Notes under the pieces: generated by a model
Databases searched by the model: none
What the model was told of the DNA's origin: nothing
What the model saw: only the letters and a program-made list of their open reading frames with translations
DNA from: an uncultured Candidatus Saccharibacteria bacterium
Lineage (GTDB): Bacteria; Patescibacteriota; Saccharimonadia; Saccharimonadales; UBA4665
Length of the DNA stretch: 64,000 bases
NCBI GenBank assembly: GCA_964610985.1
Contig: CAZSZJ010000003.1
Location: forward strand, 143 to 64,142
Reading direction: 5' to 3'
Position numbers and translations under genes: made by a program
In this document: positions 11,539-26,072 of the stretch, piece after piece
How positions within the stretch are numbered: the stretch's first letter is position 1
Layout of the letters: the number at the start of each line of letters is the position of its first letter

Positions 11539-13428
11539 TTAGGCCAGTACGGCTTTGATGCGGCGAATACCGGCTGAGCTTGCTTCCTCTTTGAGTATCT
11601 TAAAACGCTTGCCGTCTTCGAAAAGCTCCAGGGTATGGTCGACGTGCGGCCCGCCGCAGATTTCGAAACTAAAGGGCTTTTCTGCACCGTCAGCAATCAT
11701 TTTGTAGACTTTGACGGTTTCGCCGTAGCGGTCACCAAATTGGCCGAGTGCGCCTAAAGGCCCCGTTGCTTCAGCCGTTGGATATTCGGCCCAGGATACT
11801 TTGAGGTCTTTGCTAATTTGTTCGTTGACGATGTCTTCGACTCGTTTGAGCTGTTCGGGCGTAACTTTTTCGGGATGGCTAAAGTCGAATCGCAGGCGTT
11901 CTTCAGTGATGTTGCTGCCTCGCTGGATAACGTGGTCGCCGAGGACATCACGCAACGCTTGGTACATGAGGTGTGTGGCGGTGTGGTATTTTTTGTGCTG
12001 TAGGGTTTGGCCGCCGAGACCGCCCTTGAAGACACCTTTACTGGCGGTTTGGCTGCGTTCGCGCTGCGTCTTCATGAGCGCATCAAATTGTTCGCGCCAA
12101 TCTGCTGCAACTTTAATGTCCTGCTTAAAAGCTTCCTCGACGCTCAGCTCGACGGGGAAACCATAGGTGTCATAGAGCTTAAATACTTCTTCACCGGTCA
12201 GGCCGCTAGCGCCCATTTTGGACATTTCATGGATGCCTTTGCGGAGTGTTTGGCGGAAAACTTTTTCTTCGCGGGTCAGAGTCTCGATGACTTCGTCGCG
12301 TTTGGCGTGGACTTCTGGGAAGTCGTTTTCATACAAGCTCGTGATGACCGGCACGACTTCTTGGACAAAGTTTTGTTCGATACCAAGGTCAAAAGCAAAT
12401 CGGATGGCGCGGCGCATCAAGCGACGCATCACATAGCCCTGTTCTTTATTACTTGGCTTGACGCCATCGATAGCCAGGAACGCGGCGGCGCGTAAATGGT
12501 CAGCTACCACCCGCATGGCGTTGGTGTGGCTGTCATATTTTTTGCCAGACAAAGCCTCGAGTTTTTCGATAATCGGCCAAAGCAGGCTTATTTTAAAGGC
12601 ATCGGGGCTGTCAATAGCCGCCATGGCAATTCGTTCCAGGCCGCCGCCGAAGTCCACGTTTTGCTTGGGCAGTTTTTCGAAGCCGGCCTCAGTGCGGACA
12701 TATTCCATGAATACACTATTGGCGATTTCGATAAAGCGGCCGCAGTCGCAGTTGGGATGACAATACTCACCGTATTCAATGTTATGCTCGATAAAGTCGA
12801 ACTCATAAAAGATTTCGCTGTCGCCACCGCCGGGCTCACCAACCGGCATATCTTTGATTTTGCCAGCACGGCACCACCAGTTTTTGTCGGCGTCATAAAA
12901 GAAAATGCGCTCGTCAGGCTTCATGCCGCGCGCGTAACCGTCCTGTTCGGAGCCGATATCGGCCTTCAGTACTTCGATGCCTTTTTCGGCAAACAGCTTT
13001 TCCCAAATCTCGGCAGCTCGTGTATCGCGCGGAATACCGTTTGCTTCATCGCCAATAAAACAGGTCACGTAGAGTTTTTTAGGATCGAGACCAACAACAC
13101 TCGTTAGGAATTCAAAGATCCATGGCAATTGCTCGCCCTTAAAGTAATCACCAAACGACCAGTTACCTAGCATTTCAAAGAAAGTGGTGTGGCGATTGTC
13201 GCCAACTTCAGCAATATCTTGGGCGCGCAGGCAGGTCTGAGAGTCGACCAAACGCACGCCTTCGGGGTGTTCTTCGCCCAGTAAATATGGAATCAGCGGC
13301 TGCATGCCCGAACCGGTAAATAGTGTCGTCGGGTCATTGAGCGGCACCAAAAGCGCGCGGGGAATCACCTTGTGCCCGTTTTTTTTGTAAAAATCTAAGT
13401 AAGCCTGTCTAATTTGCTGCGCATTCAT
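11539..13428 (-). CDS. alaS: alanine--tRNA ligase, short form lacking the C-Ala domain
   Basis: 629 aa. Class II catalytic core (FFEMLGNWSFGDYFK), tRNA-recognition region and editing-domain metal motifs (HTATHLM ... CGGPHV). It ends right after the editing domain. Confidence 0.95.
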   Translation of the reverse strand: MNAQQIRQAYLDFYKKNGHKVIPRALLVPLNDPTTLFTGSGMQPLIPYLLGEEHPEGVRLVDSQTCLRAQDIAEVGDNRHTTFFEMLGNWSFGDYFKGEQLPWIFEFLTSVVGLDPKKLYVTCFIGDEANGIPRDTRAAEIWEKLFAEKGIEVLKADIGSEQDGYARGMKPDERIFFYDADKNWWCRAGKIKDMPVGEPGGGDSEIFYEFDFIEHNIEYGEYCHPNCDCGRFIEIANSVFMEYVRTEAGFEKLPKQNVDFGGGLERIAMAAIDSPDAFKISLLWPIIEKLEALSGKKYDSHTNAMRVVADHLRAAAFLAIDGVKPSNKEQGYVMRRLMRRAIRFAFDLGIEQNFVQEVVPVITSLYENDFPEVHAKRDEVIETLTREEKVFRQTLRKGIHEMSKMGASGLTGEEVFKLYDTYGFPVELSVEEAFKQDIKVAADWREQFDALMKTQRERSQTASKGVFKGGLGGQTLQHKKYHTATHLMYQALRDVLGDHVIQRGSNITEERLRFDFSHPEKVTPEQLKRVEDIVNEQISKDLKVSWAEYPTAEATGPLGALGQFGDRYGETVKVYKMIADGAEKPFSFEICGGPHVDHTLELFEDGKRFKILKEEASSAGIRRIKAVLA

Positions 13429-13461
13429 GGGTTATATAATAACAGAGAGAGGCAGGCCATG

Positions 13462-14409
13462 TCACTCTGACTTGCGATACGCCCCGCCGGACATGTTATG
13501 GACAGTATCTTTTGTCAGAGTTTTATGTTTGTCGGCGGCGTCATCTATCTTTTTCATTGAGCTTTCATCTTCAACCAAACCATGGGCTACACCATAGTCA
13601 ATAACCACCAATTCACTGACATTACAGATGAATTGATCGCCGATAGAAAGGCTGGTGTGCGAAACTGTCAAATCACCTACAGCGGTCACCACTTCATTGA
13701 CTGTAATAAAATTTTTGTATTTTTCTGGATCAGGACAGACATCTCGGGCGGCCCTTGCAAGCTGCCTAATTTGATTTCGTCGGTCCACTTTACGCATCTG
13801 GACCCCTTGCAAGCGAGCCCAAAAACCTTTTGCTTCGTCCTCACTTAAATCGGCAACGGAAATTCCAAATTCATCCCCGCCCAGGCGTTCGCGGTAAACG
13901 ACTATATTATCGCCCTTGCGTATGCTACCCAAGATTTCCTTAGCTGCAGCCTTTAAAATCAGATCACCCACATCTTCACCAAAGAAGTCATTTGGCCACT
14001 TAAAGTCATCTATATCTCCTCTGATCTTTGTGTAGCTTCGAGGGTTCTTGACTCCTTCGGCTGGACGGCGCTTTTCGGCCAAACCGCGTAAAAGATACAC
14101 CCCGTCCGCCCACCTCTCAAATTCAGAATAAGTAAGCATTCCCGTAAGATCATCTACTGCGATCTTGGCATCGGCTCCGAATTGCGCCTCAGTCTGAACT
14201 CCCAGCCAGGCCGCCACGTCCTCATCACGCCGATCTCCATGCAAACGATCAGCTATGCGGACAACTAAAGGGTCGCTTTCATCGAGGCCTACAAGCGCAC
14301 CCAGACGGCGTCGGTGTTCTTGCAACCTACTGTCGATTTCCATCTCTCTAGATGGAAAATAAGTTTGGGCCATGTCAAAATAACTTGGACCGTTGGCTTC
14401 GGCAGACAT
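13462..14409 (-). CDS. GGDEF-domain protein (putative diguanylate cyclase) with unknown N- and C-terminal extensions
   Basis: DDLTGMLTYSEF ... GDIDDFKWPNDFFGEDVGDLILKAAAKEIL ... ERLGGDEFGISV reproduces the GGDEF-domain pattern (D-x-LTG, DxDxFK-x-x-ND-x-x-G-x-x-x-GD, GGDEF). No TM or recognisable sensor domain. Confidence 0.7.
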   Translation of the reverse strand: MSAEANGPSYFDMAQTYFPSREMEIDSRLQEHRRRLGALVGLDESDPLVVRIADRLHGDRRDEDVAAWLGVQTEAQFGADAKIAVDDLTGMLTYSEFERWADGVYLLRGLAEKRRPAEGVKNPRSYTKIRGDIDDFKWPNDFFGEDVGDLILKAAAKEILGSIRKGDNIVVYRERLGGDEFGISVADLSEDEAKGFWARLQGVQMRKVDRRNQIRQLARAARDVCPDPEKYKNFITVNEVVTAVGDLTVSHTSLSIGDQFICNVSELVVIDYGVAHGLVEDESSMKKIDDAADKHKTLTKDTVHNMSGGAYRKSE

Positions 14410-14441
14410 TAAATTCTCCTGAATTGCTGGCGCTATACATT

Positions 14442-15488
14442 TTACATCACGATGCCGCCGCCGACAACGCGGTCAGCTTCGTAAAGCACGGCGGATTGAC
14501 CGGGAGTGAGAGCGCGGACGTCATCTTTGAGCTTTAGGCGCCAATTGCCGTTTGGCAGTTTTTGGGTGGACGTGACTTCGATAAGCTCAGCGCGATAGCG
14601 GGTACGCACGTGGTATTTGCCATTTTCTGATGGCTCGGCGTTGATCCAATGCGTCAAAGTAAGTTCAAGTTCGCTATGCCATAATCGGTCATCTTGCAGA
14701 TCTGTCGTCACGTACACCTCGTTTTTGTCCATATTTTTGCCAGTGACGTAATAGGGCAGGCCGCCGCCGACACCCAAGCCCTGACGTTGGCCGATGGTAT
14801 AAAAGAGCGCGCCATCGTGTTCGCCAATGACCTGACCGTGCTGGTCCATAATTGGCCCGGGGGCGGTTTTTACAAACTGTTGCAAAAACTCTTTGATGCC
14901 GACTTTGCCGACAAAACAAATGCCCTGACTGTCTTTTTTCTCTGCAGTATTAAGCCCTAGTTTTTTGGCAATTTCGCGCACTTTTGGTTTTTCGTATTCA
15001 CCAATTGGCATAAGACTTTTACCAAGTGCCTCTTCGGTCACGCGGTACAGAAAATAGCTCTGATCTTTGTTTTTGTCCAAGCCAGCGAGTAGAGTGACGT
15101 TTTTGATACGGGCGTAGTGACCGGTAGCAATCATGTCTGCGCCATCAGCGAGTGCCGCTTCCAAAAACAGCTTAAACTTCACTTCCTGGTTGCACATAAT
15201 GTCAGGGTTGGGCGTTAGGCCAGCCTTGTAGCCGTCAATCATATAGTCGACGACTTTACTGCGATACTCTTTTTCAAAATCGAACATCTTGAATGGAATA
15301 CCGAGCTTGACCGCCACGCGCTTGGCGTCCTGATAATCTTCTTTCCAAGGGCAAACAAAGCCAGGCAGATCCTGACTCCAGTTTTTCATGTACACACCGG
15401 TGACGTCATAGCCCCGCTCCAGTAGCAACGCCGCCGTAACTGAACTATCCACACCGCCGGACATGCCGACATAAACTTTCTTTGCCAT
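14442..15488 (-). CDS. mnmA: tRNA 2-thiouridine(34) synthase MnmA
   Basis: 348 aa. PP-loop VGMSGGVDSSV; conserved NPDIMCN and CFVG catalytic cysteines. Confidence 0.95.
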   Translation of the reverse strand: MAKKVYVGMSGGVDSSVTAALLLERGYDVTGVYMKNWSQDLPGFVCPWKEDYQDAKRVAVKLGIPFKMFDFEKEYRSKVVDYMIDGYKAGLTPNPDIMCNQEVKFKLFLEAALADGADMIATGHYARIKNVTLLAGLDKNKDQSYFLYRVTEEALGKSLMPIGEYEKPKVREIAKKLGLNTAEKKDSQGICFVGKVGIKEFLQQFVKTAPGPIMDQHGQVIGEHDGALFYTIGQRQGLGVGGGLPYYVTGKNMDKNEVYVTTDLQDDRLWHSELELTLTHWINAEPSENGKYHVRTRYRAELIEVTSTQKLPNGNWRLKLKDDVRALTPGQSAVLYEADRVVGGGIVM

Positions 15489-15543: not shown

Positions 15544-16710
15544 CTACAGGCGCGGCGTCAGCAAAATGATCTTATCGTTGCTACCATTGCTGGTACTGAG
15601 GTACAAATTGCCATCCGGGCCCTGGGTCACGGCGCGCAACCGCCCATACGCGCCTTCCAAGATCTTTTCTTCGCCCACGACTTTATCTTGACTGTCGAGA
15701 CGAAGAATTTTGAGGTGTTCCGTTTTGAGCATGGCCATCGCAAATGCGCCATTCCACCCCTTCCAGTTGTGCCCATAAATCATGGACGCACCAGAAGGAG
15801 CCACGGTCGACGATCCAGAAGACCAGATAGCGTCGATGGCATCCGGAAAGCGTTTGTTGTCAGTCATGGGGACGCTCTCGTCATAACCTTTGGCGGGCGG
15901 CGACCAGCCAAAGTTACCTTGCCGTAGCTCGTTTACTTCGTCGTCTTCACCCGTTCCGTGTTCTGCACTTAAGCCCAGTACGCCATTTTTGGCCTGGTCA
16001 AAAAATGCCAGACCTTGGATATTCCGGTGACCGTATGAATAGATACGTGGATCGAATTCGCCGCCCATATTTCCAGCCACGGGAGCGCCGTCACGGGTGA
16101 CACGCAACACCTTACCGCCCAGTTGTTTGGGATTGGTCGAAGTGTCACCCTGCGCGGAATCGCCGGTGCCCACCCATAGGTTTTTATCCGGTCCAAACTC
16201 CAACTGACAGCCTGAATGCCGCCCCGCTGATGCTCCATTATTTGCCGTAATACCCGTAATGATATCTTTTCGCTCATGCGCCAGCAGCAAATCGTTCAAG
16301 CGCCAGCGTACCACACGAATATCTTTGGCAGTGCTATTAAAACAGGCATATATTAACCGGTTACTTGCAAAATCCGGGTCAACCGCAAGCCCCATCAGGC
16401 CGCCCTCGCCCGCAGGCCTAACGTCTGGAATCGATTCTATAAGCTGTGCTTGGCCATTCCTGAGGTACTGTATTTTTCCGTCGCGCTCCGTAAACAATAA
16501 TTCGCCACTCGGCAAAAAGGCGATGTCCCAAATAAACCGACGTCCGCTTAGCAGAACCGTATCCACAACCCCTGGAGAAGAGTTATCACCCTGCCAATTC
16601 TGCAGAGATTCCGTACTCTGGGGTTGACTGCGCACTATGATAAACATGGCTGCGGCGAGCAGCAGCAAACCGATCGTCGTCGTAAACAGCAATGTCATTT
16701 TTTGCTTCAT
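15544..16710 (-). CDS. secreted/anchored PQQ-dependent sugar (glucose/sorbosone) dehydrogenase-like beta-propeller
   Basis: N-terminal hydrophobic anchor. GSDH-type motifs (GLMGLAVDPDF, GRHSGCQLEFGPD, YSYGHRNIQGLAF, EHGTGEDDEVN). The start overlaps the stop of the upstream PKD gene (ATGA at 16707-16710). Confidence 0.8.
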   Translation of the reverse strand: MKQKMTLLFTTTIGLLLLAAAMFIIVRSQPQSTESLQNWQGDNSSPGVVDTVLLSGRRFIWDIAFLPSGELLFTERDGKIQYLRNGQAQLIESIPDVRPAGEGGLMGLAVDPDFASNRLIYACFNSTAKDIRVVRWRLNDLLLAHERKDIITGITANNGASAGRHSGCQLEFGPDKNLWVGTGDSAQGDTSTNPKQLGGKVLRVTRDGAPVAGNMGGEFDPRIYSYGHRNIQGLAFFDQAKNGVLGLSAEHGTGEDDEVNELRQGNFGWSPPAKGYDESVPMTDNKRFPDAIDAIWSSGSSTVAPSGASMIYGHNWKGWNGAFAMAMLKTEHLKILRLDSQDKVVGEEKILEGAYGRLRAVTQGPDGNLYLSTSNGSNDKIILLTPRL

Positions 16711-17594
16711 CCCTGTTGTTCCAATCGTTTACGCAGTGCGGCCAGCTCGTATCGCCGGCCCAGCCAAAATGCCACAAAGATTAAGATTACCGATGCTGCG
16801 GCCGGCAACCACAAAACGCGTGTAATAACTTGTTGTTTTTGCTCGGCATCACCTGGGGCATTCGAGGTAATGGCACCGTTAGCTATCGCCACTAACTGCA
16901 AATACGCGGTCAAACCGTCTTTGTCAGTTGCTTTAATGATAACCTTGTAAACACCGGCGGATGTATAAATATGCTTGAGGTCGATGGTGCCGGGAAATTG
17001 TCGGCTAATGAGGTCGGGCGCCTTGTTGTCGCCCCAATCAACACTGATAGCATATGGGCCCGTGCCGCCCGTCAAGATAATGGGCCATGTTAGTAGCTGG
17101 CCGGGGTTTGACCCGCGCTGTGCATAACTGCTCGTCAAACTAAGCAACGACGCGTTAAACGGATTAAACTGGGTATCATGAAAGGTCACTTTTACGATAT
17201 TGGAATCCGGTCCTGCTTGGTCAAAAGCGTCATAGGCACGCGCCACCAGGTCGTTCTGGCCCGCAAAAAGGTCAATCTGCAAAGTATAGCTACCAGTCGC
17301 GCACTGTACCGAACCTACAAAGACATTATTGGCAAAGACTTTGATTAGCAGGTTTTTGGGGCACAGACCCGCGACGGTTACTGGGGTGCTAGTGAAGGAC
17401 TGCCCAGAACTGGGCGTTGTGATGGTGGGCGCCTGGGTCGGCGGATTGCTCGGAATTTTGCCTTCGATACCAACCGAACCGGCTTGCGGATTTTCGACAG
17501 GCGAAGCGGCCCCTGCCACTCCAGTAAAAGCCAATAAGCTCATCCCAAAGGCAACCAGGACAACTGCGCGTATTAAGGCCGGACGACGAAACAT
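16707..17594 (-). CDS. surface protein: signal peptide, Ig-like domain, PKD domain, C-terminal TM anchor
   Basis: Signal peptide MFRRPALIRAVVLVAFGMSLLAFTGVAGA. PKD signature ISVDWGDNKAPD...HIYTSAGVYKVIIKATDKDG. C-terminal TM VLWLPAAASVILIFVAFWLGRR. Confidence 0.7.
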   Translation of the reverse strand: MFRRPALIRAVVLVAFGMSLLAFTGVAGAASPVENPQAGSVGIEGKIPSNPPTQAPTITTPSSGQSFTSTPVTVAGLCPKNLLIKVFANNVFVGSVQCATGSYTLQIDLFAGQNDLVARAYDAFDQAGPDSNIVKVTFHDTQFNPFNASLLSLTSSYAQRGSNPGQLLTWPIILTGGTGPYAISVDWGDNKAPDLISRQFPGTIDLKHIYTSAGVYKVIIKATDKDGLTAYLQLVAIANGAITSNAPGDAEQKQQVITRVLWLPAAASVILIFVAFWLGRRYELAALRKRLEQQG

Positions 17595-17657
17595 ATATCT
17601 TCTATAACCCTCGTCTGTATTATACCGTTTTGCTTATGCTAGAGCGAGACTCTAATT

Positions 17658-18701
17658 CTAATGGCGATATCGAGTGCGGCGACCGCTAAAGGCGCGGCGG
17701 ATCAGCCATACAAGCAGGACGATCAAGATGATAGCGACCGCCAGAACGGCCACCGACCACCAAGGGATATACCAGAAACTGGTGGTAGCGAGTATTTCCT
17801 GTGAATTATTGCCATTGAGACCATAGTAGAGCGCAACCTGAGCGGTGTAGCGACCCGGCAATAGGCCAGGATCGTCACATGTGGCGTTTTGCGTGGGAGT
17901 TTGCTGGGCATTCGGATCTTTACTTTCGAGCACGCTCGTCTTTAGACAAGCCTGAATACGGCGCGTTTGACCAATCAACACTAATTGTTTTTTGGGGTTC
18001 GCATCGGTTACTTCTTTGACGGTTGCGCCAAACATATTTTTGACTACGAGACTTCCGGTGGGCTGCTCGGCAATATTACCGGTGTTTTGCAGACGGTAAG
18101 CAAATTCTTTTGGCGTTGAACCAAGATAAAAACTCTTAAAGCCGCCCTTTGATTCGTCTTTCAGGTCAGCGACAAACATACCAAAGTCTTTGAGTACCAA
18201 TTTTTCCCTGGCTTCCCCTGGTACGGTTACAAAGACAAGACTTGCCGTCGATGCAGCAATATTAACTTTTTCTTTGGTTTCAGGGTTTTTAGCGGTGTAT
18301 TCGATGGCGCTATAGTAGCTCCCTGCACCTTGTTTTTCGGGAATGGTTATCGTAATGGGTACGTTGGCCGATTTACCGGCGGCGATCTTAACACTATCCT
18401 GTATCTTTGCAAATGGCTTGAGTGACCAAGGCGTCTGCGGCAAATTGTCGTCTAGCTGCAAGGCAGGTGCGCCCGTTTCGTTGGCTGCCCCAAAATCGAT
18501 AATACGAATGTTTACCTGCAAGTCTTGGTTGAGACTCAGGTTACGAATATACAATGTATCTTTTACGGTCTTGCCCGCTTGCACAGTGTAGTCTTTGCGC
18601 GGCGAAATGCCGAGGCCATTGGACTGCGCCGACACGGATGATACGGAAACAAGTGTCATCACTGCCAGGAGCAAGGAAATAACACGTGCGATTTTCTTCA
18701 T
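17658..18701 (-). CDS. cell-surface protein with DUF916/DUF3324-like two-domain architecture and C-terminal membrane anchor (CscA-like, tentative)
   Basis: Signal peptide (...VSSVSAQS). First half GISPRKDYTVQAGKTVKDTLYIRNLS...WSLKPFAKIQDSVKIAAGKSANVPITITIPEKQGAGSYYSAIEY. Second half LVLKDFGMFVADL...FAYRLQNTGNIAEQPTGSLVVKNMFG. C-terminal TM WWSVAVLAVAIILIVLLVWLIRR plus a basic tail. The family assignment is by pattern resemblance only. Confidence 0.55.
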   Translation of the reverse strand: MKKIARVISLLLAVMTLVSVSSVSAQSNGLGISPRKDYTVQAGKTVKDTLYIRNLSLNQDLQVNIRIIDFGAANETGAPALQLDDNLPQTPWSLKPFAKIQDSVKIAAGKSANVPITITIPEKQGAGSYYSAIEYTAKNPETKEKVNIAASTASLVFVTVPGEAREKLVLKDFGMFVADLKDESKGGFKSFYLGSTPKEFAYRLQNTGNIAEQPTGSLVVKNMFGATVKEVTDANPKKQLVLIGQTRRIQACLKTSVLESKDPNAQQTPTQNATCDDPGLLPGRYTAQVALYYGLNGNNSQEILATTSFWYIPWWSVAVLAVAIILIVLLVWLIRRAFSGRRTRYRH

Positions 18702-18747
18702 AAACCCTCTTTTTACTAGGAATTAACCTTTAGCCTTTAGTTTACCA

Positions 18748-19803
18748 TCAAAAAGTCGCTGCACAAACATAGGTAAGTGTTGCAGTATACACACCGGGTG
18801 GTTGGCTAGGTGAAATATTAACAATGTAGCTGGATGTGAATTTACGGCTATCGGTCGCAAAGGAGCTCGTGGCTACTGTATCGCCGCTTACAAAAGCAAA
18901 ACGGTTCGAGGTATCGTAGCGCGCAGTTGGCGTACTGATGCCGGCACCAGTGGGATTTGCACCCACCGCCGGATCAGAATTTTGTCGCAAATTAAGCCCA
19001 AACTGTGCATTGCCCGGGGCACTGACGGTCGGGTTTGCCAGAGGCGAGATAACATTATTTCCGGATGTCATGGTCGTGCCGTACATACTTATGGCCAGGC
19101 CGAATTCGGCATTTGTGGCCGCAATCATCTGCGAAGAACCGTAGGCCACTCGCGCGGTTGAGAGATCGCCCAAATCAATTACGCTATCATCGGCGGTCGA
19201 ACAATCATCGGCCAGCACGAGCCCCACGCAAAACTTCAAGATTGGCGGAACTTCCGAACTCACATGAATGCTGGTAGTGGTCGAGTTTACGACCGCGCCA
19301 AAGTCAATATACGCCCCCGAGCCATCTGCGCTAGCAAAGGTGCTTATTCGCACATAAAACGTGTCAGGGGCACCCGTCGGGTTTACAACCGCGTCAAAAA
19401 CATAGTGCGATGGATTTGCGACCGGGGATGTAGTCGCTGCACGCGAAAGTGTCAAACGGTTAGGTTGAGCGTCAAAGATAGAAAAACCGGTTTCGCCCGT
19501 TTGGTCGGCCAATACAGCCCCTGACACGTCTATGCCCGTTGGCGCGTTACATGGCAATTCCAAGAATGGGGTTGTGCAGTATTCGAACACGACTGAGCCT
19601 ACAGCGTCCGGACTAGCATATGAAAACTGAAAAGAGTGACGAGTGATTGCACCGGGTTGGCTATCCTGAATGTGCAGTCCGCGACCCTGAAGCTGTAGCG
19701 CCGAAACCTTGAGTGGAAGCGCTGTGAAGTAAACGAAAGGCAAGAATAGGCTAAGCGCAATTAGCAAATTGTCCTTTAGGCTAGTCCGAAGCTTTTTTGC
19801 CAT
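18748..19803 (-). CDS. secreted surface protein, paralog 3 of a three-member family (unknown family)
   Basis: Signal/anchor sequence NLLIALSLFLPFVYFTALPLKVSA. Shares an N-terminal module (GSVVFEYCTTP ... FYVRISTF) with 19834..21120. Shares a C-terminal module (NAQFGLNL...YDTSNRFAFVSGDTVA...NISPSQPPGVYTATLTYVCAATF-stop) with both neighbours. Confidence 0.7.
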   Translation of the reverse strand: MAKKLRTSLKDNLLIALSLFLPFVYFTALPLKVSALQLQGRGLHIQDSQPGAITRHSFQFSYASPDAVGSVVFEYCTTPFLELPCNAPTGIDVSGAVLADQTGETGFSIFDAQPNRLTLSRAATTSPVANPSHYVFDAVVNPTGAPDTFYVRISTFASADGSGAYIDFGAVVNSTTTSIHVSSEVPPILKFCVGLVLADDCSTADDSVIDLGDLSTARVAYGSSQMIAATNAEFGLAISMYGTTMTSGNNVISPLANPTVSAPGNAQFGLNLRQNSDPAVGANPTGAGISTPTARYDTSNRFAFVSGDTVATSSFATDSRKFTSSYIVNISPSQPPGVYTATLTYVCAATF

Positions 19804-19833
19804 ACACGCACCGAAGCTGGCTAAAGCCTAAGG

Positions 19834-21120
19834 TTAATACGTTGGAGTCGCTAGGTAAGTAATACTTGTGGTGTAGATGCCCGGAGGGGTGGTGGTCGAG
19901 ATATTGCCGAGGTATCGAACCGAGCCAGTATCGCAGGTTACCGTACCGCTCGCCGATGCGATCTGGACGGGTGTCGTTACGCTACTGGGAGCAAAGGCAA
20001 AGAGAGCCGTACCACCGTTGGTGATTGTACCGTTTCCGGCAGCATATGGCGCAGAAGCGGCAAGGTTGGTGAAGCTATGCCCGTTTCCTAGCTGGGTGTC
20101 ACTGCTGTCGATAGCCAAACCAAACTGGGACGTACCGACGCCGCTAGCAACCGCCGTGCTAGGCGTAGGCTGTGTGGTACCGGCAGCGGCAATAGAATTG
20201 CTCCCGCTCTTGAGCGTATCTCCGGAGTAATAAATAATCGTTCCGCCGTTGGCGTTCGTACTTAACCGGAAGTAAGAATGGGCGTCATATGCCTGCTGAA
20301 AACTCAACGTCCCCTCGGTTACATCACCCAAAACTAGCGCACCGTTATCGCTAAACGCCGTACAAGAAGTGGTGGGGGGCGTGACTGTGCTGCCTACCGA
20401 AAAGTTAAGCGTTTCCTGAACCTTAGCCGTAATGTCGATCTGCTGTGCCGTTGAGTTGGCGACAGAACCTTGGTCGACCGGTGTCGCAAAGGCGTTGTCA
20501 GAATACGTAGTCATGCGCACAAAGAATGCCTGGTTATCTGTTGTTGGATTCGTCACGTAGTTTGATCCGCTGGCACCAAATTCTGCGGTAACGGTCGCGC
20601 CGCTCGTAACAGAGGCTGCTGTGCGGGAAATGGCAATACAATTGGTGCGGCCCGGGCTTGCGCCAGTACAGTTATAAGGCGCGCCGGTAAGAACGGCTGA
20701 TGCATTGACCGTAAAACCACTGCTAAATCCTGTACCGGTAGTTGTTACTGCGGTAACGTTAGCGGCCGTAAAACCCGTAGGTGAGGTACATGTTGTGCCA
20801 GGCAATGGCGTTGTACAAATCTGAAACAATACTGAACCGATGTTTCCCGTAGTTGGAATGGTAAAGCCAAAAGTGTACTTTGCACGTGCGCCGTTGCCAC
20901 CTTCGCCGGGGTTACCGACGTTGATGCTTCCATTGGCGGAGCTGCTAATCGTTAATTTGCGCGCAGTGATCTGTGCAGCCTTGGCGTTCCCGGTAAATAT
21001 GATCATATCGCCCACAACCCAAGCACCGAAAAGGGCGATAGCTAACGTCAACAGGCTCGTGCGACGTAGAAATGATCTGATTTTGGTCATGTAATTATCC
21101 TGTTTATTTGCAGTGTTCAT
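19834..21120 (-). CDS. secreted surface protein, paralog 2 (largest) of the three-member family
   Basis: Signal peptide around LLTLAIALFGAWVVG...AKA. GSVLFQICTTP and FFVRMTTY modules. C-terminal TSQFGLAI ... GNISTTTPPGIYTTSITYLATPTY-stop. An alternative ATG at 21090 (MTKIRSF...) is equally plausible. Confidence 0.7.
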   Translation of the reverse strand: MNTANKQDNYMTKIRSFLRRTSLLTLAIALFGAWVVGDMIIFTGNAKAAQITARKLTISSSANGSINVGNPGEGGNGARAKYTFGFTIPTTGNIGSVLFQICTTPLPGTTCTSPTGFTAANVTAVTTTGTGFSSGFTVNASAVLTGAPYNCTGASPGRTNCIAISRTAASVTSGATVTAEFGASGSNYVTNPTTDNQAFFVRMTTYSDNAFATPVDQGSVANSTAQQIDITAKVQETLNFSVGSTVTPPTTSCTAFSDNGALVLGDVTEGTLSFQQAYDAHSYFRLSTNANGGTIIYYSGDTLKSGSNSIAAAGTTQPTPSTAVASGVGTSQFGLAIDSSDTQLGNGHSFTNLAASAPYAAGNGTITNGGTALFAFAPSSVTTPVQIASASGTVTCDTGSVRYLGNISTTTPPGIYTTSITYLATPTY

Positions 21121-21187
21121 ATGAAAGTATTTTTCGTTTTAAGATTATCATAAAACATAAGCATTTCGCAACCTTTTTGCATGCAAT

Positions 21188-21934
21188 TTAAAACGTGGGG
21201 ACCACTTGTATATTAAGCCGCCCGCCATACTGCCCGGCCGGAGTAGAACGGTCCACATTGGCAATAATTGAAAGCGAGTAATTGGTTTGCCCACTGCTTT
21301 TATTACTAAAAGCGATGGTGTCGCCATTAACAAACTTAAAAAGGTTGGCAGTATCGTAACCAGACGCCGCTGACCCAAATCCAAAGGTCACATCTGGTAT
21401 TTGCGACGGATCGGCACCAATATCGGGTACTGAATTATTAACTAAATTAAGTCCGAACTGCTCAACACCTGCCTGCGACGACGTCGGCGATCCAAGCGAA
21501 GAAAGTGCGTGCGAACTACCGTTAGCTGTAGTAGGCGATGCACCATGCACCAGCACCACATAGCCGCTGCTCAGATAATTGCGCACCGTAAAAGTTGCGA
21601 CCGCCGACCCGGTGATGCTGGCATCGATAATGCCCAGATCGTATACGCCGCCGTTTACCGCAAACTCCAAAAGCGGTACATTGGATGTGTTAAATCCGCC
21701 CTGAAATTGGTAGTTGGTGCTAGCCGAATTGCCAACGGTCAACTCCCCGGCCGATTGTTTGGCCTTATAATTCGTCGAAGATGGGTCCAGCTCGCCGCCC
21801 GATCCAAAAAACGATTCCTCAACTTTGTAGTTGGTCGAAGTTGATTGCGCATACGCCGGCATAGAGCTCACCGCTATCAACACAAGCACGGCCATGCCCA
21901 TAGCAATAACCCCAACCAACTCATGCAGTTTCAT
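21188..21934 (-). CDS. secreted surface protein, paralog 1 (smallest), with three STNY(K/Q) mini-repeats
   Basis: The ORF-track start at 21970 is TTG. ATG at 21934 gives MKLHELVGVIAMGMAVLVLIAVSSMPAYA, a signal peptide. STNYKVEES / STNYKAKQS / STNYQFQGG repeats. C-terminal VEQFGLNL...YDTANLFKFVNGDTIA...NVDRSTPAGQYGGRLNIQVVPTF-stop. Confidence 0.7.
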   Translation of the reverse strand: MKLHELVGVIAMGMAVLVLIAVSSMPAYAQSTSTNYKVEESFFGSGGELDPSSTNYKAKQSAGELTVGNSASTNYQFQGGFNTSNVPLLEFAVNGGVYDLGIIDASITGSAVATFTVRNYLSSGYVVLVHGASPTTANGSSHALSSLGSPTSSQAGVEQFGLNLVNNSVPDIGADPSQIPDVTFGFGSAASGYDTANLFKFVNGDTIAFSNKSSGQTNYSLSIIANVDRSTPAGQYGGRLNIQVVPTF

Positions 21935-22001
21935 GACTGCTATTGTGCGCCAAGCTGCATCAAAAGACAATCCGTTTACGCTTTAGAAAGACTCTAGTAT
22001 T

Positions 22002-23078
22002 ATGTACAGGAAGCTTATGGATCCATCGCAAGTTCAGTCTGACAAAGAAAACGATACCAATTCGCTGGAAAGTAGCGGAACGACTGTTGATAATGAAAAA
22101 CCCGCGGACAGTTCTGTGCCCTCCAATGAACTAGAAAACTCGTCTGAAGCCTCTGGCTCCTCTAGTTCATCGATTGACGCCAGAGGTTCCGAGGGCACTG
22201 GTAGCACACAAACTAATACTTCTGCTCGACCACCTTTTTTCAAGCGCCTGTGGCAAAAATTTAATATCTACCTGCTCTTGTTTGCACTTGTTATTTTGCT
22301 CGCCATCGGTATAACTTTGGGACTGTTTCTTAAAAACCGCAGTGACACCAAAAAAACTGAAAGCATCATTAACTCGCAAAACTTGTCCGAAAGCGCGCTC
22401 AAGCAACTAGCTAATAGTGACGTCACCGTTGGCAACTCCAAGCAAGTGTTAAAAGTTGTATCAAACGCCCTATTTTCCGGCTCGGTACTGGTGCGCGGTG
22501 ACCTGGAAGTCGCAGGTAGCGTAAAAGTGGGGAACGAGCTACAGCTGCCTGGCATTACCGTATCCGGTTCGAGCCGATTTAACCAGTTGCAGGCCGACAA
22601 CCTGACAATTGGCAGTAATGCTACCGTACAGGGCACATTTAACGCCAAAAAAGGCATAAATGTTTCAGGGAACAGCACGTTTGACGGCCTCTTATCGGCC
22701 GCGCAAATCTCCACCAACGTATTTATTTTGAACGGCGACCTTAAACTTACACATCACATTACGGCCGGTGGTTCCACGCCATCGGTCGAAAGGGGCGGCG
22801 CGCTCGGTTCGGGCGGCACCAGCTCGGTCAGCGGCTCGGACACCACCGGATCAATAGTCGTAAACACTGGTGGCAACCCCGGCGCAGGCTGCTTTGCCAC
22901 CATCAAATTTGCTACACGCTTTGACGGCACGCCGCACGTCACTATTACACCAATCGGCAGCGCCTCGGCCGACATCAATTATTATGTCAATCGCAGCAGC
23001 ACCGAGTTTAGCGTCTGCACCACCAATCCAGCTCCAAGCGGCCAAACCTTCGGCTTCGATTACGTTATCCTAAACTAA
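22002..23078 (+). CDS. single-pass membrane protein with extracytoplasmic beta-helix-like repeats
   Basis: Low-complexity Ser/Glu N-terminus and a TM (IYLLLFALVILLAIGITLGLFL). Then short repeats of the type VLVRGDLEVAGSVKVGNELQL / ITVSGSSRFNQLQADNLTIGSNATVQGTFNAKKGINVSGNSTFDG, followed by a Gly/Ser-rich stretch. Divergent from the surface locus. An alternative ATG at 22017 follows AGGAAG. Confidence 0.65.
   Translation: MYRKLMDPSQVQSDKENDTNSLESSGTTVDNEKPADSSVPSNELENSSEASGSSSSSIDARGSEGTGSTQTNTSARPPFFKRLWQKFNIYLLLFALVILLAIGITLGLFLKNRSDTKKTESIINSQNLSESALKQLANSDVTVGNSKQVLKVVSNALFSGSVLVRGDLEVAGSVKVGNELQLPGITVSGSSRFNQLQADNLTIGSNATVQGTFNAKKGINVSGNSTFDGLLSAAQISTNVFILNGDLKLTHHITAGGSTPSVERGGALGSGGTSSVSGSDTTGSIVVNTGGNPGAGCFATIKFATRFDGTPHVTITPIGSASADINYYVNRSSTEFSVCTTNPAPSGQTFGFDYVILN

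Positions 23079-23603: not shown

Positions 23604-26072
<2,469 letters not shown>

Follow-up and report, generated by a model that had tools for sequence, protein, structure and literature searches.

A probable minimal pam pilus operon in a Saccharibacterium and the kinship of its chaperone with DUF916 proteins

Pam pili have been proposed as the host-contact fibres of epibiotic or parasitic bacteria of the Candidate Phyla Radiation (CPR). The pam operon was described in 2026 in Ca. Mycosynbacter amalyticus, a parasitic CPR bacterium, and its full set of proteins comprises PamT, PamA, PamE, PamD, PamR, PamB and PamC (bioRxiv 10.64898/2026.03.03.709456). Two shed filament forms were solved in that organism by cryo-electron microscopy (cryo-EM), and in the PamA and PamB filaments a linker strand completes the C-terminal domain of the neighbouring subunit (i.e., donor-strand exchange), the donated linker being reported as the most conserved region. 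Based on AlphaFold modelling, the same preprint proposed that PamT is the tip, PamE a further pilin, PamR the terminator and anchor, and PamC and PamD PapD/FimC-like chaperones held in the membrane by a C-terminal helix. Here we analyse a stretch of 64,000 nucleotides (the window; contig CAZSZJ010000003.1) from an uncultured Saccharibacterium of the class Saccharimonadia, in which a run of minus-strand genes at 15544–21970 very probably contains a minimal, five-gene pam operon for a chaperone-assisted, usher-less donor-strand-exchange pilus.

Two other described systems bear on this locus. Chaperone-usher pili (Pap/Fim, CFA/I and the archaic Csu/CupE types) resemble Pam in having a chaperone with two immunoglobulin (Ig) domains, truncated Ig-like subunits that are completed by a neighbour's strand, and proposed tip and terminating subunits. 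They differ in that Pam has neither an usher nor an outer membrane, that its chaperone is tethered to the membrane, that its donor is an inter-domain linker in subunits with an extra N-terminal sandwich domain, and that its fibre is an open, extended helix and not a coiled rod (10.64898/2026.03.03.709456). The second system is the WxL/Csc cluster of Lactobacillales, Listeria and Bacillus, which encodes WxL proteins (PF13731) together with WxLIP, a protein composed of DUF916 (PF06030) and DUF3324 (PF11797). Descriptions of WxL proteins present them as surface proteins bound to peptidoglycan and not as filaments. Their C-terminal domain is predicted to be an incomplete beta-sandwich that a hairpin strand of WxLIP completes (Hassan et al. 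2023, PMC10599100), a prediction that describes strand complementation of the chaperone type without using the term.

Family membership, gene order and the reduced form

We labelled the six co-directional open reading frames (ORFs) on the minus strand G1 (21188–21934, 248 residues), G2 (19834–21120, 428 residues), G3 (18748–19803, 351 residues), G4 (17658–18701, 347 residues), G5 (16707–17594, 295 residues) and G6 (15544–16710, 388 residues). The gaps from G1 to G5 measure 67, 30, 46 and 63 nucleotides, and G5 and G6 overlap by four nucleotides (ATGA). An earlier interpretation made from the DNA alone (henceforth the sequence-only reading) had reported this arrangement and suggested that all products are exported or anchored; our coordinates agree, and a hydrophobic signal or anchor segment was found at the N-terminus of all six. 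C-terminal transmembrane (TM) helices were found in G4 (residues 308–340) and G5 (residues 256–279). That reading had also recognised G1, G2 and G3 as paralogs, which BLASTP bore out: G1 and G3 align over their C-terminal ~165 residues (E 8e-19) and G2 and G3 over their full length (E 8e-25), with G1 and G2 related only via G3 and a common NCBIfam domain. Among the motifs it had listed, we recovered the N-terminal module common to G2 and G3 (GSVLFQICTTP and GSVVFEYCTTP; FFVRMTTY and FYVRISTF), while the C-terminal pattern YDTxN..F.F..GDT held in G1 and G3, with G2 showing a degenerate version of it. Beyond these genes, the window contained no pilin or chaperone paralog.

Family assignment with NCBIfam release 20 settled what the paralogs are. 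The sequence-only reading could not place them, and Pfam gave no match at E ≤ 1 for any of the three; they are Pam pilins, i.e., members of an already characterised family. Specifically, G1 matched the equivalog model for PamT (NF058579, CPR_pilus_PamT) at 314 bits (cutoff 240) over residues 14–248, and the model of the Pam pilin C-terminal domain (NF058581, cutoff 55) matched G1 at 151 bits, G2 at 103 bits (residues 267–428) and G3 at 173 bits. G5, earlier taken for a PKD protein, is PamR: it matched the corresponding equivalog (NF058578, CPR_pilus_PamR, pilus system RbmA-like protein) at 421 bits (cutoff 300). As a Pam operon, the locus therefore falls into a class of attachment apparatus that is already known, namely the thin surface filaments of host-dependent CPR bacteria, and the alternative guess of the earlier reading, a paralog-built fibre held together by strand complementation, is essentially the Pam pilus (10.64898/2026.03.03.709456). 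Since the Pam family was characterised and curated in 2026, the locus on its own is now ordinary.

A scan of GTDB species representatives yielded 55 loci, all of them from Saccharibacteria except for two evidently mislabelled metagenome-assembled genomes (MAGs). Gene order is kept across these relatives: atpA/atpD-atpC, a divergent membrane protein of 340–380 residues, PamT, a large pilin, a pilin of ~360 residues, the chaperone, PamR, an optional pilin with a second chaperone, mnmA and alaS. PamT opens the operon in most of the loci, and PamR, present in 50 of them, nearly always follows the chaperone directly and is missing only where a contig end cuts the operon or the order has changed. 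The nearest genome (JARIHD010000006) shares 92% identity with G4. Neither the 411 homologs of G3 nor the 391 homologs of G4 carry a Pfam annotation, and where they are named they are hypothetical proteins of Candidatus Saccharimonadales; all G3 homologs with a source name come from Saccharimonadales or from mislabelled MAGs. The two mislabelled assemblies are L008 (DATLCF010000001.1, 562 kb, labelled Nevskiaceae), which has a complete Saccharibacteria-type pam operon with its flanks, and L032 (DATMTU010000018.1, a 9.6-kb contig labelled Dongiaceae), which has the core from pilin to second chaperone; both taxonomic labels are almost certainly wrong.

The housekeeping flanks (the atp operon, mnmA and alaS) are as syntenic as the operon itself, and in these reduced genomes synteny alone is for this reason weak evidence. 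A rival explanation is a set of unrelated secreted or envelope proteins (e.g., S-layer or matrix proteins) that are no more than neighbours on a conserved backbone. We consider this explanation very unlikely, given that one C-terminal domain is common to three of the proteins, that curated equivalog models match to Pam, that the extra pilin and chaperone genes of other species nearly always co-occur (as a pair, or with at least the second chaperone in the same slot), and that homologues have an experimentally determined filament structure.

As an orthology reference we used L087, a complete metagenomic pam operon that had been checked with NCBIfam. The best L087 match of G2 was the first, large pilin (E 7e-40), G3 was 42% identical to the second pilin (E 1e-83), G4 was 39% and 31% identical to the first and second chaperones, respectively, and G5 was 45% identical to PamR. 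We infer from position and from L087, as distinct from a direct comparison with the published M. amalyticus proteins, that G2, G3, G4 and G5 correspond to PamA, PamE, PamD and PamR. The window thus resembles the M. amalyticus system in its gene families and in the order of its first five genes, in its flanks (ATP synthase genes and a divergent "tail fibre-like" gene), in the signal peptides on all products and in the C-terminal TM helices of the chaperone and PamR. It differs in that it lacks a PamB-like pilin and the second chaperone PamC, in that its PamA-position pilin is shorter (428 residues), and in that the end of the operon carries a membrane-anchored glucose/sorbosone dehydrogenase, joined by the ATGA overlap.

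The reduced form, without the PamB-like pilin and the PamC-like chaperone, was found in this window and in ~17 of the 55 loci. It amounts to a stripped-down set (a tip subunit, a pair of rod pilins, a single chaperone and an anchor) that is common to seventeen or so related species, which suggests that PamB and PamC are dispensable. Since both are absent from this lineage, a fibre here would be made from the PamA-like and/or the PamE-like subunit with a single chaperone. The window hence adds a stripped-down member to the Pam pili, and the reduced form indicates which minimal set of genes would be worth reconstituting.

Pilins, proposed tip and proposed terminator

The two larger pilins share a two-domain plan. 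G2 (19834–21120, minus strand; matched by NF058581 and L087), which sits in the PamA position, consists of an N-terminal beta-sandwich, followed by a linker strand and by an acceptor domain at the C-terminus. Its putative donor linker, KVQETLNFSVG (20392–20424, minus strand, residues 233–243), follows the family consensus KVLETLxFSVG and is collinear with the linker of G3. G3 (18748–19803, minus strand; likewise matched by NF058581 and L087) sits in the PamE position and also has two domains. In its AlphaFold2 model two beta domains flank a low-confidence linker (residues 178–207), within which the putative donor strand VPPILKFCVG (19222–19251, minus strand, residues 185–194) has the lowest confidence of the whole monomer; V185, P186, L189, F191, C192 and V193 are invariant among 42 homologs. 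The invariant motif and its low confidence in the monomer model are indirect evidence that linkers may be exchanged between subunits here as well. The sequence-only reading had asked whether the C-terminal strand could be the donor; the solved homologues donate the inter-domain linker instead. The PamE-like pilin family further has five invariant cysteines, at positions 76, 85, 192, 201 and 347; the odd one, Cys347, which lies four residues from the C-terminus of G3, could form an inter-subunit disulfide or be free.

PamT (G1; 21188–21934, minus strand, with an alternative TTG start at 21970 that is the one called by NCBI and gives 260 residues) is a small pilin whose one domain is the C-terminal truncated-Ig domain; three S-x-NY repeats lie ahead of it, and the protein is the proposed distal tip. 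It retains a linker-like motif, VPLLEFAVNG (21650–21679, minus strand, residues 86–95), that BLASTP aligns with the G3 linker. Across 43 PamT orthologs the motif is conserved as PLLE[VF]xVxGG, and in the extended form PLLE[FV]xVxGG..DLG it is collinear with the donated linker of two-domain pilins. The preprint describes PamT as having no linker strand (10.64898/2026.03.03.709456). The three repeats, which the sequence-only reading had picked out as STNY(K/Q), are present; they fall in a region (residues 29–85) in which they are conserved, and the CS..YC cysteine pair of the family is absent from this copy.

PamR (G5; 16707–17594, minus strand) is RbmA-like; it combines two domains of the Ig/FnIII type with an N-terminal strand and a TM helix at the C-terminus, and is proposed to terminate the fibre and anchor it in the membrane. 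The candidate N-terminal donor strand is GSVGIEGKI (17454–17480, minus strand, residues 39–47), for which the family consensus is GSxGLE; in M. amalyticus the N-terminal strand of PamR is predicted to enter the last pilin (10.64898/2026.03.03.709456).

A probable membrane-tethered chaperone related to DUF916

G4 (17658–18701, minus strand) encodes a putative PamD-type chaperone whose signal peptide precedes an Ig domain resembling DUF916 and a further Ig-like domain; at the C-terminus it has a TM helix and a basic tail. In its AlphaFold2 model (predicted local distance difference test, pLDDT, 81), a pair of beta-sandwich domains is followed by a C-terminal helix (residues 314–339); together with the TM prediction, this confirms the two beta-sandwich halves and the membrane helix previously described for this 347-residue protein. 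In a Foldseek search of the PDB, the three best matches to this model were E. faecium WxLIP structures dated January 2026, 9i1y and 9i25 (WxLIP bound to a long WxL protein), at E ~6e-11. They were followed by CfaA, EcpB, CsuC, CupB2, PapD, FimC and Caf1M (E 1e-8 to 4e-6), and RbmA also ranked below WxLIP.

Profile comparisons extended this structural match to the level of sequence. The DUF916 model (PF06030, WxLIP_PGBD) scored 24.5 bits on G4, under its gathering threshold of 27.3, and 36 of 40 members of the chaperone family matched it at E ≤ 1, sub-threshold as in G4. In a set of 118 members, 21 matched at E ≤ 3e-6 (best 2.6e-10), and several of the chaperones that passed the gathering score sit inside verified pam operons. 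For HMM-HMM comparison we fetched metagenomic WxL clusters using the published WxLIP motif NQIDKxxxYFDLK and verified them with Pfam (PF06030 and PF11797 at 137 and 158 bits; WxL at 227–243 bits; a sortase and a small LPXTG protein present). With hhalign, a profile of 82 PamD- and PamC-type proteins aligned with the WxLIP profile along the entire first domain (G4 residues 37–137 against WxLIP residues 49–149) at a probability of 97.5% (P 6.8e-12), and at 98.9% (P 1.4e-16) in global mode; a reversed-sequence control gave 6.7% (P 5e-3). These results support placing the first domain of Pam chaperones in the DUF916 superfamily, as a remote homologue, and with it a shared ancestry of the chaperone and the anchored protein of the WxL/Csc family.

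The relationship does not extend by sequence to the second domain. DUF3324 (PF11797, WxLIP_HBD) had no Pfam match in the 40 or in the 118 family members, and domain 2 of G4 alone against this domain of WxLIP was not significant in hhalign (P 0.006, probability 6%); only the whole-protein Foldseek alignment with WxLIP spans it (304–306 columns). Hence the DUF916 half of the proposed DUF916/DUF3324 architecture was supported as remote homology, by structure match, hhalign and the pam relatives above the gathering score, and the DUF3324 half was not detectable by sequence. Searching PDB sequences with the first chaperone profile returned nothing, and a broader profile reached EfmWxLIP1 only at E ~0.07. 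The chaperone family is large, with 3,897 clusters at 50% identity in an exhaustive HMMER search (E ≤ 1e-3). Two proteins, P0333 (686 residues) and P0364 (637 residues), match the chaperone profile in four stretches each and apparently consist of two Pam-type chaperones fused in tandem. A scan of viral contigs for the WxLIP motif gave zero matches.

The kinship between the Pam chaperone and WxLIP is the one new point of the analysis. The Pam preprint (10.64898/2026.03.03.709456) never mentions WxL, DUF916 or Csc, and we found no paper in the searchable literature that ties WxL clusters to donor-strand or chaperone-usher mechanisms. Through this homology, the WxL/Csc clusters, a long-standing puzzle in lactobacilli, enterococci, Listeria and Bacillus, are connected with a newly described CPR pilus, and a testable mechanism suggests itself for them: strand complementation of the chaperone type, possibly with polymerisation.

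The same homology raises the question of whether the locus encodes a Csc/WxL-type surface complex in place of a pilus, with the DUF916-type protein holding the three paralogs as a non-filamentous adhesin complex, as proposed for WxLIP and WxL in Lactobacillales. Both systems have an anchored protein of ~340–360 residues with a signal peptide, two Ig-like domains (the first being DUF916 in WxLIP and, as supported above, a remote homologue of it in Pam), a C-terminal TM helix and a basic tail, and WxLIP, including WxLIP bound to a long WxL protein, is the best structural match of the chaperone. The cluster logic is also parallel (PMC10599100): the gene of the anchored protein lies beside those of a small exported protein and of at least one large one, which have a C-terminal beta domain in common, the small one being little else than that domain and the large one carrying N-terminal domains as well. 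Against this explanation, which we regard as unlikely, the paralogs have no WxL domain detectable by Pfam, and hhalign between each pilin family and verified WxL proteins was not significant (P 0.015–0.18), nor was a 146-sequence profile of the Pam C-terminal domain against a 159-sequence WxL profile (P 0.065). The only recurrent aligned piece is the last strand (YTATLTYV against YTTTLTWVL), and the WxL chain of 9i25 was not among the top 50 Foldseek matches of the full two-domain pilin model. The W-x-L motif is absent from the three paralogs, as noted earlier, and from G5. In contrast to the true WxL locus L072, which has both a sortase and an LPXTG partner, the six proteins contain no LPxTG motif and no ORF of the window carries the TLxTC sortase signature. 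In addition, PamA and PamB of the same family form long filaments in M. amalyticus (cryo-EM), and the donated linker strand is invariant here. The two systems also differ in taxon (Firmicutes as opposed to relatives that are all Saccharibacteria). Membership of the locus in the WxL/Csc family was therefore rejected on the lack of a detectable WxL domain or W-x-L motif in the paralogs (Pfam, hhalign), and of the distant Csc/WxL analogy drawn in the sequence-only reading what remains is the DUF916-related chaperone.

More speculatively, Pam pili and the WxL/Csc clusters of Firmicutes might descend as separate branches from a single ancient monoderm system, in which the open C-terminal Ig-like domain of exported proteins (one small, one or more large) is completed by strand donation from a tethered, DUF916-type chaperone. 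We put this forward tentatively: its chaperone half is supported, and its pilin/WxL half has no sequence support. If it were true, the Pam pilin C-terminal domain would have its counterpart in the WxL domain, and donor-strand exchange might also be how WxL proteins assemble. By eye only, the small WxL proteins of L072 and similar loci (L057–L085) have a layout that recalls an N-terminal donor extension, with a conserved N-terminal AEYTSNGxIxFE, a proline-rich spacer and GPLSIDFASSLxFG ahead of the WxL domain.

The PapD/FimC/CsuC-like fold of G4, and the weak resemblance of the pilin model to chaperone-usher tip adhesins and Gram-positive MSCRAMM adhesins in Foldseek, could also be read as a sign of a classical chaperone-usher or sortase-assembled pilus. 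This is the least credible of the explanations considered, as every gene of the operon is accounted for and none is an usher, no operon product has a Pfam match to PapD-type chaperone families (PF00345/PF02753), the chaperone is membrane-anchored and not soluble, and the donor in this family is an internal linker and not an N-terminal extension (10.64898/2026.03.03.709456). The sortase version further lacks its LPxTG substrate (in none of the six proteins) and its TLxTC enzyme signature (in no ORF of the window). A transposon sequencing (Tn-seq) paper on Southlakia (PMC10633639) contained nothing relevant on usher, fimbria or Ig-like proteins.

Returning to the Pam pilus, the features described above best support the following scheme for its assembly. 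All products would be exported by Sec via their N-terminal signal peptides, and the C-terminus of G2, of G3 and of PamT would be a truncated Ig-like domain whose groove is open. The tethered G4, as a DUF916/WxLIP-type protein with a PapD-like pair of Ig domains, would transiently fill this groove with a strand of its own. The candidate strand is a hairpin at residues 70–92 (18426–18494, minus strand; DFGAANETGAPALQLDDNLPQTPW), in which F70, G77, P79 and W92 are invariant and L81 and L83 are at least 90% conserved; its pLDDT of 65–69 is below that of the flanking strands, and it is collinear with the WxLIP region that AlphaFold2 predicts to insert into WxL (PMC10599100). The conserved inter-domain linker of the next pilin would then displace the chaperone strand, and growth would proceed from the base of the fibre. 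PamT, lacking the N-terminal sandwich domain, is the proposed starter of the fibre at the distal end, and PamR would insert its N-terminal strand into the last pilin and tether the fibre by its C-terminal TM helix. The finished fibre probably makes the first contact with the host bacterium.

Several observations weigh against the interpretation of the locus as a pam operon. Of the two major pilins that cryo-EM revealed, one (PamB) is missing from the window, as is the second chaperone, PamC. G2, at 428 residues, is short compared with the 500–700 residues of the PamA-position gene in many species (range among species 380–727). No NCBIfam model matches G4, whose chaperone role is argued from fold, context and the AlphaFold complexes of the preprint, and a PDB sequence search with a pilin returned nothing; the set searched contains no solved Pam structure. 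With the full two-domain pilin model, Foldseek found only generic two-Ig adhesins, with template modelling scores of ~0.2. The linker-like motif in PamT would fit a pure tip role awkwardly. Finally, filament structure and linker exchange have been demonstrated in the M. amalyticus homologues alone.

Neighbouring genes and minor observations

The last gene of the run, G6 (15544–16710, minus strand), encodes a membrane-anchored beta-propeller of the glucose/sorbosone dehydrogenase type (PF07995, GSDH, 244 bits), and its start overlaps the PamR stop (ATGA). Among the 55 loci it was found only in the closest relatives (L001, L002 and L019), and we conclude on that account that it is a lineage-specific passenger and not a core Pam component; in many other species its slot holds the PamB-like pilin and the PamC-like chaperone. 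The six genes therefore stand as a set of adjacent ORFs, as first reported, with the dehydrogenase falling outside the conserved cluster. As a side observation, this places a sugar dehydrogenase of the pyrroloquinoline quinone (PQQ) type in coupling with a pilus operon.

On the other side of the operon, a divergent gene (22002–23078, plus strand) separates PamT from the atp operon in ~47 of the 55 loci. Its product of 358 residues has an acidic cytoplasmic N-terminal region, a TM segment (residues 83–112) and a beta-rich exterior, its only family match is a weak, bactofilin-like one (Pfam, E 0.007), and it probably corresponds to what the preprint calls a "tail fibre-like protein".

In the related loci L002–L056, mnmA and alaS (11539–15488 in the window) adjoin the operon as consistently as do the ATP synthase genes (23604–25225). 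Since the mnmA/alaS side is equally syntenic, the functional coupling of pilus and ATP synthase suggested in the preprint may just be backbone synteny of reduced genomes.

A scan of the locus for promoters and terminators gave results at chance level, and Rfam identified no regulatory RNA at the locus and two tRNAs elsewhere in the window. Between alaS and mnmA, a minus-strand gene at 13462–14409 (315 residues) carries a partial GGDEF domain that covers profile positions 36–102 of the 161 in PF00990; it was detected only in the window and its nearest relative, L002, and is possibly a degenerate cyclase.

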